DNA of 40,000 bases from an uncultured Clostridia bacterium (GTDB taxonomy: Bacteria; Bacillota; Clostridia; TANB77; CAG-508). The notes beneath the pieces are model-generated. The model did not search any database. It was given only the letters and a program-made list of their open reading frames with translations, and was not told the DNA's origin. The stretch lies in NCBI GenBank assembly GCA_944393435.1, contig CALYAE010000021.1:1-40000 (forward strand), in the 5' to 3' direction. Both the position numbers and the translations under genes were made by a program. Numbering within the stretch: the first letter of the stretch is position 1; the number at the start of each line of letters is the position of its first letter. Positions 25,568-28,285 of this stretch are shown one piece after another.

Positions 25568-27334
25568 ATGAGTATTTATCGTACACATACCTGCAATGAA
25601 ATTCGTTTAGATGATGTAGGTAAAAAAGTAAAAATTGCTGGTTTTGTAGAAACCATTCGTGACTTTGGAGGTCTTGTATTTTTAGACATCCGTGACATGT
25701 ATGGAGTGACACAAGTGGTTACTTCTGAAGATTCTGGAGAAGTCGACTTTGCTTCTCATATTCCAATTGAATCTTCTGTTTGTGTAGAAGGAATTGTGAG
25801 GAAAAGAGATAAAGAAACAATTAATGAAAAATTAGACACCGGTCTTGTTGAAATTCGTATTGAAAAAATTACAATTTTAGGTAAAAGAACCAAAACATTA
25901 CCTTTTGAAATTAATTCTAACCAAGAAGTGCGTGAAGATTTAAGGTTACAATATCGTTATTTGGATTTAAGAAACACGAAATTAAAAGATAACATCATAT
26001 TAAGAGCAAAATTGTTACAATTTTTAAGAGAAGAAATGATAAAACAAGGCTTTTTAGAAGTGCAAACTCCTATTTTAACCAGTTCTTCCCCAGAAGGAGC
26101 AAGAGATTATCTTGTCCCTAGCAGATTACATCCTGGGAAATTTTATGCTTTACCTCAAGCACCTCAACAATTCAAACAATTATTGATGGTTGCTGGCATT
26201 GATAAATATTTTCAAATTGCGCCTTGTTTTCGAGATGAAGATGCAAGGGCAGACCGCTCACCAGGAGAGTTTTATCAATTAGATATGGAAATGTCTTATG
26301 CAACACAGGATGATGTTTTTGCAGTTATGGAGCCTGTAATGGTTCATACCTTTACTCAATTTTCTGATAAGAAGGTTAAGGAGACTCCTTTCCCTCGTAT
26401 CTCTTACCATGATGCTATGTTAAAATATGGAACTGATAAGCCAGATTTAAGAAATCCACTTGTCATCATTGATTTAACAGACTTTTTCCAAAAGTGTACT
26501 TTCAAGCCTTTTATTGGAAAAACAGTAAGAGCCATTAAAGTAAGTGCTCACCTGTCAAAAGGATTTCATGAAAAGCTATTAGAGTTTGCTATCTCTATTG
26601 GAATGCCTGGACTTGGCTATTTAGAAGTACAAGAAGATACTTCTTTTAAAGGACCAATTGATAAGTTTATTTTGCAAGATTTAAAATCAGAATTATTAAA
26701 ATTAGCAGATTTAGAAAAAGAGGACACTATTTTCTTTATTGCAGATAATGAAAAAAGAGCTGCGGACTTTGCAGGTCAGATTAGAACAGAGTTAGGAAAA
26801 AGATTAAATTTAATAGATGAAAATGTATTTGCTTTTTGCTGGATTGTAGATTTTCCTATGTATGAATTAGATGACCATGGAAAAGTCGCTTTTTGCCATA
26901 ACCCTTTTTCTATGCCACAGGGCGGTTTAGAAGCGTTACAAACGAAAGAACCACTTTCTATTTTAGCCTATCAATATGATATTGTGTGTAATGGAGTAGA
27001 GCTTTCTTCTGGCGCTGTAAGAAATCATGATATTGCAATTATGGAAAAATCCTTTGAAATTGCAAATTATACCAAACAAGATATTGAACAAAAATTTTCT
27101 GCTTTATTTCAAGCATTTCAATATGGTGCTCCACCACATGCAGGAATTGCTCCTGGTGTTGATAGAATGCTAATGTTATTAACAGGTGCAAACAGCATTC
27201 GCGAAGCAGTTGCATTTCCTATGAATAGTAAAGCACAGGATTTAATGATGGGGGCTCCTGGAAATGTTTCTAAAGAGCAGTTAATAGATGTACATTTAAA
27301 AGTATATGGGACCATTGGGGACATACCCCTTTAG
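25568..27334 (+). CDS. aspS: Aspartate--tRNA ligase (bacterial type; probably non-discriminating given gatCAB and the Asn T-box)
   Basis: 588 aa with class IIb motifs (FYALPQAPQQFKQLLM, QIAPCFRDED, GAPPHAGIAPGVDR). The last 9 codons and the stop lie inside the palindrome at 27308..27379. Confidence 0.93.
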   Translation: MSIYRTHTCNEIRLDDVGKKVKIAGFVETIRDFGGLVFLDIRDMYGVTQVVTSEDSGEVDFASHIPIESSVCVEGIVRKRDKETINEKLDTGLVEIRIEKITILGKRTKTLPFEINSNQEVREDLRLQYRYLDLRNTKLKDNIILRAKLLQFLREEMIKQGFLEVQTPILTSSSPEGARDYLVPSRLHPGKFYALPQAPQQFKQLLMVAGIDKYFQIAPCFRDEDARADRSPGEFYQLDMEMSYATQDDVFAVMEPVMVHTFTQFSDKKVKETPFPRISYHDAMLKYGTDKPDLRNPLVIIDLTDFFQKCTFKPFIGKTVRAIKVSAHLSKGFHEKLLEFAISIGMPGLGYLEVQEDTSFKGPIDKFILQDLKSELLKLADLEKEDTIFFIADNEKRAADFAGQIRTELGKRLNLIDENVFAFCWIVDFPMYELDDHGKVAFCHNPFSMPQGGLEALQTKEPLSILAYQYDIVCNGVELSSGAVRNHDIAIMEKSFEIANYTKQDIEQKFSALFQAFQYGAPPHAGIAPGVDRMLMLLTGANSIREAVAFPMNSKAQDLMMGAPGNVSKEQLIDVHLKVYGTIGDIPL

Positions 27335-27379
27335 TCCCATTAAGAAATGGGACTAAAGGGGTCTGTCCCCAATGGTCCC
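27308..27379. repeat. 72-nt palindrome (34-nt arms, one mismatch): an inverted pair of REP-like units 3' of the transposase-like gene
   Basis: GGGACCATTGGGGACATACCCCTTTAGTCCCATT-AAGA-AATGGGACTAAAGGGGTCTGTCCCCAATGGTCCC. Confidence 0.85.
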
Positions 27380-27384
27380 ACTTT

Positions 27385-28170
27385 TTATTTTCTGTTATTT
27401 TTAGTATGATATCTCATTAAAATTCTTTCTACTCTATGTCTATGTATTTTAAAATATTTTGCTAATTGATAATTAGATATATCTATTTTTTGTTTTACTC
27501 TTGGTACAAGTATTTCTATATTTGATTTTTCTTTAATAATATAATTCCAACTTTTTTTGTATTCTAGTTCTAGTGATTCTATGATTTCTTTCATATTTTC
27601 TTCTAAGGCATTTTCATATTCTTTGAAATAGTAATCCTTCTTCGTATGCCTTTTTTCATATTCTAATAAGTTGATTTGATTCGTATGAAATACCATCTCC
27701 ATCGCATCGTCATCAATAAATCTCCCTTTTTTTAAATAATCATAATAGCTTGAGTATTGATATTCATCACACTTTCTTACGATATTTGCTTTAACGGGAT
27801 TATTATGAATATAAACTAAACAGTCTACCAGATATTTTTCCGAAGTAATTTCTTCTGCTAAAAATCTATTTCTAAAAACATGTCCTACTCTATTTTCCAT
27901 ATAATTATAGAATCTACCATAATCTTCATTAATCTTCTTCATAAAATCTGATAACTTCTGATTGTTTTCTGAATAAATTAATAAATGTGTATGATTATCC
28001 ATTATACAATAGGCTAAAATTTTCACATTATATTCTTGGTAGTTTTTTATCATCAAGTTCAAATATTTTTTCTTGTATATTTCTTTTTGAAAAATATATT
28101 CTTTGTTGATACCTTGTACAATTACATGAAAAAAAGATGTATTATAATTTCTACGTGATTTACGTGGCAT
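27385..28170 (-). CDS. IS200-like Y1/HUH tyrosine transposase family protein, RAYT-like, with an extra C-terminal region of about 110 aa
   Basis: It has the HUH motif in AYCIMDNHTHLLIY and the catalytic-Tyr helix in LVDCLVYIHNNPVKANIV (compare E. coli RayT ...VDYIYINPVKHGWV, from memory). The C-terminal ISNYQLAKYFKIHRHRVERILMRY looks like an HTH. A GGAGG RBS is present. Confidence 0.85.
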   Translation of the reverse strand: MPRKSRRNYNTSFFHVIVQGINKEYIFQKEIYKKKYLNLMIKNYQEYNVKILAYCIMDNHTHLLIYSENNQKLSDFMKKINEDYGRFYNYMENRVGHVFRNRFLAEEITSEKYLVDCLVYIHNNPVKANIVRKCDEYQYSSYYDYLKKGRFIDDDAMEMVFHTNQINLLEYEKRHTKKDYYFKEYENALEENMKEIIESLELEYKKSWNYIIKEKSNIEILVPRVKQKIDISNYQLAKYFKIHRHRVERILMRYHTKNNRK

Positions 28171-28252
28171 AATAATTCCTCCATTCTATTTTCCCCTTTA
28201 TGCCCCTTTTTCAATTGTTATACATCTTTTTTCTTTTTAGTAATTAAATTAT

Positions 28253-28285
28253 TAGGACCAAATAAGTCTGTCCCCAACGGTCCTA
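28253..28285. repeat. REP-like hairpin 5' of the transposase-like gene, overlapping the adhE stop
   Basis: TAGGACCAAATAAGTCTGTCCCCAACGGTCCTA, with the stem pairing GGACC and GGTCC. The reverse strand, GGACCGTTGGGGACAGAC, parallels GGGACCATTGGGGACATAC at 27308. Confidence 0.8.

Follow-up and report, generated by a model that had tools for sequence, protein, structure and literature searches.

A single-copy Y1 gene and its GTCCCCA hairpin units in an uncultured gut Clostridia bacterium: a candidate TIRtron

Di Nocera 2013 (PMC3733652) described genes resembling those of REP-associated tyrosine transposases (RAYTs) that are flanked by inverted repeats and not by GTAG-type repetitive extragenic palindromic (REP) sequences, and named them TIRtrons/TIRYTs. 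Many of these terminal inverted repeats (TIRs) contain GGGGWSAS; some are self-complementary, moderately repeated, and arranged in dimers or clusters. Quentin 2018 (PMC6006769) equated the TIRYTs with TnpA-Y1 subclass 2.1, to which it assigned 20 of 26 of them; the subclass is characterized by a conserved serine that follows the catalytic helix and by a C-terminal helix-turn-helix (HTH) extension (Bac_DnaA_C, HTH_23 or HTH_28). In the same scheme, Asn at Tyr+4 is the signature of TnpA_REP, whereas IS200 has Y-x3-Q. Group 1 RAYTs have been reported in Clostridia, with low counts of the flanking 16-mers (~12) (Bertels 2017, PMC5581495). Here we analyzed a 40,000-nt stretch of contig CALYAE010000021.1 from an uncultured Clostridia bacterium (hereafter the window; G+C 30.5%), in which one HUH/Y1 gene lies between aspS and adhE and is surrounded by hairpin units carrying the heptamer GTCCCCA.

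From the letters alone, this locus had been read as a domesticated RAYT with dispersed REP sequences. Our results support this original prediction, none of whose three refuting conditions was borne out, with the exact class being the HTH-bearing TIRYT/TIRtron and not the GTAG-REP RAYT. Its remark that the pattern is known mainly from Proteobacteria was overstated, as RAYT-family genes in Clostridia were already in Bertels 2017. We consider it likely, with a probability of roughly 0.7, that the locus is a TIRtron, that is, a domesticated HUH/Y1 endonuclease for single-stranded DNA (ssDNA) of the TnpA_REP branch with a C-terminal HTH (a TIRYT), together with its cognate hairpin repeats. The class is already described, and the window locus is a well-documented further example of it.

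The Y1 gene and its place beside adhE

The Y1 open reading frame (ORF) is bounded by aspS (25568-27334, + strand) and adhE (28283-30886, − strand), and, as predicted, neither tnpB nor any other insertion sequence (IS) gene stands beside it. The encoded protein contains both motifs on which the prediction had rested, DNHTHLL (HUH) and YIHNNPVKA, and it matches Pfam Y1_Tnp at 45 bits (cutoff 23, E = 1.4e-11). The best NCBIfam model is NF047646 REP_Tyr_transpos at 70.5 bits, whereas the IS200 model NF033573 gives 20.2 bits, under its cutoff of 55. Across an alignment of 49 homologues, H60 and H62 (HUH), Y120, H122, N124, P125, Y137 and S140 are invariant, Y137 and S140 lying in the stretch Y-x-Y-S-S-Y; the residue at Tyr+4 is Asn and never Gln, giving the signature Y-x3-N. 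The sole sequence match of the family profile in the PDB, over aa 37-143, was 4ER8, which is E. coli TnpA_REP bound to a REP hairpin. The AlphaFold (AF2) model (predicted local distance difference test, pLDDT, 88.4) also had 4ER8 as its top Foldseek match in the PDB (E = 1.9e-6, target template-modelling (TM) score 0.71); the transposases of IS608 and ISDra2 ranked behind it, with TM scores of 0.55-0.68 for IS200/IS605 TnpA. Judged by sequence and predicted fold, the Y1 protein is closer to RAYT/TnpA_REP than to IS200.

The prediction had also pointed to an extra C-terminal half ending in an HTH-like helix. We found 845 homologues, nearly all ~250 aa long and aligned across ~96% of the query, so this half belongs to the family, and a three-helix HTH is predicted at its end. 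Family members match the Pfam models HTH_11, HTH_3, HTH_23, HTH_24 and HTH_28 (HTH_23 in 8 of 32, HTH_28 in 5 of 32); the window's own Y1 sequence gave no Pfam HTH match at E <= 1, and no similarity to Bac_DnaA_C was detected in this sub-family. Structural matches of the C-terminal half were small HTH domains only, the best being of DeoR/SorC type, local and not significant overall. A profile of this half retrieved 359 cluster representatives among 1.84 billion, with the module always at the same C-terminal position or in short fragments. The HTH probably adds duplex or hairpin DNA binding, or autoregulation. Additionally, we noticed many proteins of ~120-130 aa that consist of the C-terminal module alone, starting from a constant offset of ~12 residues (P0125, P0126, P0133, P0135-P0138, P0141, P0148 and others); these may represent genes in their own right, copies that were split or frameshifted, or artefacts of gene calling.

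The window contains one copy of the Y1 gene. Its orthologue P0002 (87% identical) occupies the same place in the sister species, in the order adhE-Y1-aspS, in every assembly examined; window and sister species share 89.6% nucleotide identity over 5.7 kb. Two further homologues, P0043 and P0042 (47% and 49% identical by BLASTP; P0043 45% over a full-length alignment), are likewise encoded immediately after adhE, in the vicinity of gatCAB, S20, SASP and hpf. AdhE is 86% identical where the Y1 proteins are only 45-49% identical. Another homologue, P0057 (43% identical), has one other fixed context in 10 samples. Thus, the proposed check of aspS-adhE synteny gave conserved adhE adjacency down to 45-49% identity. 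Multiple identical copies of the gene with its ends, which would have pointed to an ordinary IS200/IS605, were not seen: there is one copy in the window, and each orthologue has a single genomic context across 10-15 independent assemblies. For the Y1 family, plasmids gave 12 partial matches among 72,556 records, none covering >=80% of the query, and phages gave one distant match only. Exact-protein look-ups of the window AspS, AdhE and P0279 returned no record.

Between the window and the orthologous locus L001, the ratio of nonsynonymous to synonymous substitutions (dN/dS) of the Y1 gene was 0.19 (0.13 in the N-terminal and 0.25 in the C-terminal half), compared with 0.08 for aspS and adhE; dS was 0.30, 0.36 and 0.64 for Y1, aspS and adhE, respectively. 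These values indicate a gene under purifying selection and co-inherited with its neighbours. Taken together, the comparisons suggest that the Y1 gene behaves as a domesticated gene, long inherited vertically next to adhE, unlike an IS.

About 25-40 nt before the Y1 start codon there is a conserved G-run box. In the 70 nt upstream, 18 of 48 low-GC family loci have a GGGG run, against ~6% expected, often as GGGGCAWA and often preceded by GATGTAT; this conserved GGGGCA box may be an operator or an element of the 5' untranslated region. In a scan of 27200-28400, promoter-like sites were no commoner than in shuffles. We also noticed that two contigs of the window's species, L009 (contig end 7301) and L010 (1019 nt), stop within ~70 nt past the Y1 gene, at or inside the palindrome described below, and that many homologues also lie on short contigs. 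The repeat or hairpin may break short-read assemblies at the Y1 locus, and such contig ends call for caution among annotators of metagenome-assembled genomes (MAGs).

The hairpin units at the gene and beyond it

Three copies of one ~33-nt unit surround the Y1 gene. Two of them form a palindrome on the 3' side, starting 4 nt past the Y1 stop codon. It had been placed at 27308-27379 and extends over 27307-27380 (74 nt), with two inverted 35-nt arms of 97% complementarity separated by a 4-nt spacer; as ssDNA it folds at a free energy (dG) of −41.9 kcal/mol (z = −14), and arm 1 alone at −10.6 kcal/mol (z = −3.8). The third copy is the predicted hairpin on the 5' side, 28253-28285, whose stem TAGGACC/GGTCCTA was found, though weak alone. 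The inner GGGG half of this upstream unit is decayed; the unit itself is conserved in the sister species. As predicted, the two sides share a sequence in the same orientation: the 18-mer GTCTGTCCCCAAYGGTCC occurs at 27361-27378 (+) and 28266-28283 (+), with a chance expectation of 0, and arm 2 is a direct repeat of the upstream unit. A third, inverted copy of GTCTGTCCCCAAYGGTCC with one mismatch is at 27309-27326 (−). Viewed from the gene, TGGGGACAG, which fits GGGGWSAS, is found upstream (the reverse complement of 28266-28276) and in arm 1, and GTCTGTCCCCA is found downstream in inverted orientation. The same inverted TGGGGACAG/GTCTGTCCCCA flanks are present in L001, L021, L027, L109 and L119.

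The units reach into both neighbouring genes, as had been noted from the letters; overall, that description of the locus holds to within one or two bases. aspS ends inside arm 1, at 27334, with the protein tail ...YGTIGDIPL, and the first three bases in the stem of the upstream unit supply the adhE stop, TAG. The last ~9 codons and the stop of aspS are arm 1 sequence in the window (27307-27334), in L001 (10841-10868) and in L013 (2982-3010), a Y1-less locus considered below; this sharing among three lineages shows that the insertion is old. The arms differ in a compensatory way, CCATTGG/CCAATGG in the window and CCGTTGG/CCAACGG in L001, as the long palindrome evolves in concert.

The same architecture was recognizable in distant relatives. 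The L021 unit reads TGCCA-aaggggtct-GTCCCCA-a-TGGCA, and its core AAAGGGGTCTGTCCCCAATGG is identical to that of the window although the proteins are 45% identical; the others read TGGGAAA-ttggaacc-GTCCCCA-TTTCCCA (L027), TGCACA-tttttttac-GTCCCCA-a-TGTGCA (L109) and TTAGAAA-aaggggact-GTCCCCA-a-TTTCTAA (L119). Among 80 metagenomic loci with Y1 proteins 26-55% identical, GTCCCCA occurred 23 times within 150 nt downstream of Y1 genes, against 0.52 expected from the locus background, and TGGGGAC occurred 7 times upstream, against 0.56. The polarity is fixed across relatives, with the TGGGGAC side upstream and the GTCCCCA side downstream. The arrangement stem (>=5 bp)-~8 nt-GTCCCCA-0-3 nt-stem' was found at 36% of GTCCCCA sites versus 7% in 30 control permutations. 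In an unbiased flank sample of 34 sites in one fixed register, pairing involved 61% of cells versus 42% in shuffles, and the covariation score was 0.48 versus 0.20; none of 500 shuffles reached the observed pairing or covariation, and pairing peaked at slide 0 and dropped when the partner was slid. From these alignments, the stems covary between lineages while the heptamer is invariant. A covariance model (described below) detected many units at other loci, among them three (−)(+) doublets and a gene-flanking pair within 12 kb of L050. Separately, three short distant Y1 genes (L085, L087 and L092; 163-203 aa, 32-36% identical) have the flank polarity reversed: TGGGGAC lies no more than ~15 nt from the stop codon, and GTCCCCA is on the upstream side.

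Within the window, GTCCCCA occurs 9 times against 1.22 expected. We built a covariance model from the flanking GTCCCCA sites for a census, and it recovered window units outside the training set at E <= 1e-3, namely 20416-20450, the 3858/3892 doublet and 38778-38811; in all, there are ~4 dispersed units in 40 kb. The original prediction had listed scattered relatives with the same head at gene ends. This held for 20416 and 38778, which are full variant units; the 3858-3926 site carries GTCCCTA, and those at 17400 and 23394 are degenerate half-units. The unit at 20416-20450 lies 5 nt past the hpf stop, and its outer stem is two compensatory pairs away from the Y1-locus units. The unit at 38778-38811 is preceded by a triplicated left-arm motif, GTCACTAAT, and the doublet at 3858-3926 (inverted repeat I5) has 33-nt arms that are 94% complementary and sits between two convergent genes. 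A further GTCCCCA site, 36981-37015 (−) (18 bits, E = 0.001), lies inside ORF 35919-37190, the orthologue of a 422-aa pyridine-nucleotide oxidoreductase-family (Pyr_redox) gene of L001; it is either an intragenic unit or a chance match.

The motif was likewise found dispersed outside the locus and the window. The first seven units seen all fit the strict 29-nt pattern GGACYAANNNNGNNTGTCCCCAAYRGTCC. In 596 Gb of species-representative genomes, a collection that does not include the window's genome, this strict pattern, which leaves variant units uncounted, occurred in 2 uncultured Clostridia MAGs only; in one of them, from the sister species, 9 contigs hold 11 copies, some single and some in inverted doublets. 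Units of the window lineage have often lost the left half of their inner stem (GGGG) to decay while keeping GTCCCCA, which points to a heptamer that is read sequence-specifically, beyond pairing alone.

Around the units we also observed tandem duplications of 14-16 nt, comprising GTCCCCA and the right arm, in three lineages: L057 (897-1045 and 1-110), L072 (3828-3860) and L109 (3860-3895, also in L111-L117). In the window, beside the triplicated GTCACTAAT, AAGTGACAA is repeated (38790-38830, 17382-17410). These duplications may be slippage products or enzyme footprints; deriving an exact cleavage site from them was dropped because the repeat register is ambiguous. Another repeat of ~170 nt, ~90% identical, is present at three sister-species loci (L002 5851-6031, L015 7701-7865 and L020 2701-2872).

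The units almost always adjoin gene 3' ends, where they either overlap the stop codon or are 0-16 nt away. The terminal TAGGAC of the unit repeatedly provides the TAG stop of the neighbour (window 28283-28285; L001 1549 and 9887; L015 709; L016 7425). This position, together with the T-rich sequence that follows some units, e.g., GGTCCTATTTT, would suit independent terminators or mRNA-stabilizing stem-loops, incidental to a Y1 gene that is an inert old IS remnant. We regard this explanation as very improbable. The association with Y1 flanks is ~44-fold over background, with fixed polarity, in relatives from 26% identity upward, and the Y1 gene is under purifying selection and not decaying. Further, the scan of 27200-28400 found no terminators, 8 of 10 units are antisense to the adjacent upstream gene, and the true hpf terminator is a separate, conserved hairpin further downstream of the unit. 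No Rfam family matched in a gathering-threshold scan of the window, so the hairpins are not a known RNA. A bidirectional terminator-like hairpin at 31585-31632, AAAAAAAATGAGGATGTCCTAAAAAATATTTTTAGGACATCCTCACTCTTTTT, is unrelated to the GTCCCCA units.

Turnover of units, the Y1-less allele and the proposed mechanism

Comparison of orthologous sites shows that the units turn over between sister species. The window unit after hpf is missing at the orthologous L001 site. GatA is 502 aa in the window versus 478 aa in the sister species: its natural end, ...YTYEQAKK followed by the stop, is replaced by read-through of the half-unit GTCCCCATAGTGACA, and the gatA-gatB spacer is shortened from 127 to 62 nt (region 23328-23428). 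The intergenic regions of the window and L001 are too diverged for clean unit boundaries. A search for empty or target sites defined no target sequence, only L013 overlapping other loci. In addition, the window (31565-35942) and L001 (1539-6051) carry opposite orientations of a block that contains leuS and two ORFs of 141 and 359 aa. We considered whether units mark the inversion breakpoints; an L001 unit (1549-1579) lies at one breakpoint and none at those of the window, leaving the idea unsupported.

In a sub-lineage of the sister species the Y1 gene is gone. At L013, from the BRZ_EI bin65 MAG, the palindrome stands alone between aspS and adhE. The junction joins ...GTCTGTCCCCAACGGTCC to TATTTTCCATAA (shorter form, ...GTCCCCAACGGTCC to TATTTTCC). 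The missing segment of ~905 bp comprises the Y1 gene and the upstream unit, spanning from the 3' edge of arm 2 (left breakpoint) to the 3' edge of the upstream unit (right breakpoint), two units in direct orientation. An identical junction occurs at L129, a 40.6-kb scaffold from a different study that is 99.96% identical to L013; its recurrence in an independent scaffold excludes an assembly artefact as the source of the Y1-less allele. The Y1-bearing strains (L131-L135) share 95-97% identity with the Y1-less L129. Since the window lineage and still more distant ones have Y1 at adhE, the Y1-less allele is a loss. Relative to L001, the deletion crossover falls within or just after GTCC. By analogy with IS608-type excision, this crossover is consistent with two hairpins on the same strand having been cut site-specifically at equivalent positions and rejoined.

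This allele bears on whether the locus is an ordinary, currently active IS200/IS605-type insertion sequence, present once here by chance. The Y1 transposase fold, the two similar direct-orientation hairpins flanking the gene as in IS608, and the precise absence of the gene plus one hairpin in one lineage would all suit such an element. Nevertheless, we consider it highly improbable: the absence is phylogenetically a loss and not an empty target, and the flanking units of relatives are inverted, not direct. The protein has Y-x3-N rather than Y-x3-Q and scores far under the IS200 cutoff; there is a single locus per lineage, with synteny down to 45% identity, and neither several near-identical copies nor presence on plasmids or phages was seen.

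Another explanation is a domesticated DNA-binding or nicking host factor, acting at replication forks, in supercoiling, or in 3'-end processing or termination. The hairpins would then be chromosomal binding sites that selection maintains and that spread through ordinary recombination or slippage instead of Y1-catalysed transposition. Deep synteny and purifying selection agree with this, as do the location of units almost only at gene 3' ends, often supplying the stop codon, the invariant heptamer plus HTH, which suggest sequence-specific binding, the slippage-like tandem partial duplications, and the persistence of units in the Y1-less lineage. However, the HUH, Tyr and Asn residues are invariant across the family, arguing for retained cleavage chemistry; unit presence differs at orthologous sites between sister species; the doublets are inverted with fixed polarity, REPIN-like; and no host phenotype or regulon is known. 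We therefore regard the host factor as unlikely, although it and the TIRtron reading are not mutually exclusive.

Under the TIRtron reading, and taking E. coli TnpA_REP and IS608 TnpA as models, the enzyme would bind the unit as an ssDNA hairpin and read the exposed GTCCCCA. Cleavage and rejoining would proceed via a 5'-phosphotyrosine on Tyr120, with a metal held by H60/H62, and could duplicate, move or delete units while the gene, bounded by inverted units, stays put. In this lineage, the extra 3' unit would form the palindrome and place two direct-orientation units around the gene, permitting its precise loss either by one-strand Y1 cleavage and rejoining or by repeat slippage.

Several points weigh against the TIRtron reading. 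The loss could have occurred by enzyme-free slippage between 12-18-nt direct repeats, an 18-nt direct repeat being available if the ancestral upstream unit resembled that of the window. At least 11 units are still present in the Y1-less MAG, showing that they persist in the absence of this gene. On its own, the upstream single unit forms a weak fold (−4 kcal/mol, z = −1.8). The copy number demonstrated is in the tens, which is modest, and the counts come from the window and fragmented MAGs. Of 73 relatives, only 18 have the exact GTCCCCA downstream, and in some higher-GC members no hairpin accompanies the motif. The protein misses the equivalog cutoff of the NCBIfam RAYT model NF047646 (70.5 versus 80 bits), and Quentin 2018 (PMC6006769) reported no REP-like sequences near subclass 2.1 genes. 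Finally, we infer by analogy the link between protein and hairpin, the cleavage itself, and its strand and position.

A broader proposal, which we put forward tentatively and at somewhat less than even odds, is that subclass 2.1 enzymes generally have a cognate hairpin, with a freely covarying stem and an invariant GTCCCCA at the end of the loop, 5' of the right arm. If true, GTCCCCA would be a third class of REP tag beside GTAG and CGTC, read in the loop and not at the foot, perhaps with help from the HTH, and Clostridia and other low-GC bacteria would carry dispersed copies of the element as REPIN-like (−)(+) doublets. In that case, comparing the natural Y1+ and Y1− sister lineages could show directly whether the repeat population depends on the enzyme for its maintenance.

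Table 1. Coordinates of the Y1 gene, its domains and the hairpin units in the window
Feature	Position	Strand	Evidence or remark
Y1-HTH gene, TIRYT/TnpA_REP-like, 261 aa	27385..28170	(−)	ORF, Pfam Y1_Tnp, NF047646, AF2
Catalytic HUH/Y1 domain, aa 7-140 (H60/H62, Tyr120, Asn124, Y137/S140)	27751..28152	(−)	alignment, 4ER8 matches
C-terminal helical half, aa 141-261, family-specific	27388..27750	(−)	~96% homologue coverage, dN/dS 0.25
Terminal three-helix HTH (predicted), aa ~215-259	27394..27528	(−)	helices 215-228, 233-240, 244-259, pLDDT >90
Hairpin unit, palindrome arm 1	27306..27340	(−)	covariance model 32.3 bits, E = 1.4e-9
Hairpin unit, palindrome arm 2	27347..27381	(+)	covariance model 31.6 bits; fold −9.7 kcal/mol
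Upstream single unit	28252..28286	(+)	covariance model 31.5 bits; 82 nt from Y1 start
Conserved upstream box GATGTATAAC ... GGGGCAT ... GGGG	28193..28226	(−)	between upstream unit and ribosome-binding site
Dispersed variant unit TGTCACT-N10-GTCCCCA-TT-AGTGACA	20416..20450	(−)	covariance model 23.5 bits, E = 5.6e-6
Dispersed variant unit between two genes	38778..38811	(−)	covariance model 18.1 bits, E = 9e-4
Dispersed inverted doublet, GTCCCTA variant	3858..3926	no strand	covariance model 20.2 and 23.4 bits
Half-unit GTCCCCATAGTGACA read through by gatA	23394..23428	(−)	covariance model 13.8 bits, E = 0.056
Degenerate half-unit at 3' end of 209-aa ORF	17400..17434	(−)	covariance model 12.6 bits, E = 0.17

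Significance and comparison with described systems

The window locus extends the association of a tamed REP/RAYT-type transposase with hairpins into uncultured gut Clostridia, and it connects two published views that disagree, TIRs with GGGGWSAS on the one hand and no REP-like sequences near subclass 2.1 on the other. Added beyond those papers are the resolution of the TIR as a hairpin with covarying stems and an invariant loop-side heptamer, the dispersed singlets and REPIN-like doublets in low-GC Firmicute MAGs, and the deep Y1-adhE synteny with Y1+ and Y1− sister lineages. The unit with its GTCCCCA loop tag offers a concrete substrate for biochemistry, and close strains with and without the gene form a natural experiment on what RAYT-like enzymes do for or to their hosts. 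For MAG annotators, it is a caution that units rewrite gene 3' ends, as in the aspS tail, the gatA extension and the supplied stop codons.

Compared with IS200/IS605 elements (IS608 and ISDra2 TnpA), the locus shares the HUH/Y1 fold and the type of subterminal hairpin that is recognized in ssDNA, and the precise, seamless excision of IS608 serves as a mechanistic model for the deletion allele. Those elements are multi-copy and mobile, have Y-x3-Q and are often accompanied by tnpB; none of this applies to the window gene.

The E. coli REPtron (TnpA_REP, 4ER8) provides the best sequence and fold match. It shares Y-x3-N, a single-copy gene with inverted hairpin flanks, and repeats that are scattered across gene 3' ends, either singly or in inverted pairs. 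However, E. coli TnpA_REP has 165 aa and no HTH, and its REPs number in the hundreds and carry a GT[AG]G guide at the 5' foot; none of the 7 window units has GT[AG]G or C[TC]AC at the foot, the conserved tag being GTCCCCA on the 3' side of the loop. The REPIN-RAYT systems of Groups 1-5 likewise combine a single-copy, vertically inherited transposase with REP doublets, with Group 1 counts similar to those seen here; PMC5581495 centres on the REPINs of Pseudomonas, Escherichia and Neisseria, and the HTH and the GTCCCCA hairpin are undescribed there. A literature search for GTCCCCA/TGGGGAC palindromes returned nothing bacterial among the papers it covered.

The closest described systems are subclass 2.1 and the TIRtrons. 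With subclass 2.1, the locus shares a TnpA_REP-like core and a C-terminal HTH (HTH_23/HTH_28-like), and S140, soon after the catalytic Tyr helix, may correspond to the conserved Ser of that subclass; it differs in that REP-like hairpins flank the Y1 gene and are dispersed. With the TIRtrons, it shares a RAYT-like HUH/Y1 gene between inverted GGGGWSAS repeats (TGGGGACAG here) and a protein longer than RAYTs. The published cases are mainly from Proteobacteria, Acidobacteria and similar groups, the main text of PMC3733652 being without Clostridia, whereas in the window lineage each "TIR" is a hairpin whose stems covary and are specific to the lineage and whose loop has the heptamer on its 3' side, and the downstream copy is an inverted doublet forming the palindrome. 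Taken together, the Y1 protein and its TGGGGACAG flanks appear to fit TIRYT/subclass 2.1 on every testable feature, an assignment set by features rather than by a tree.

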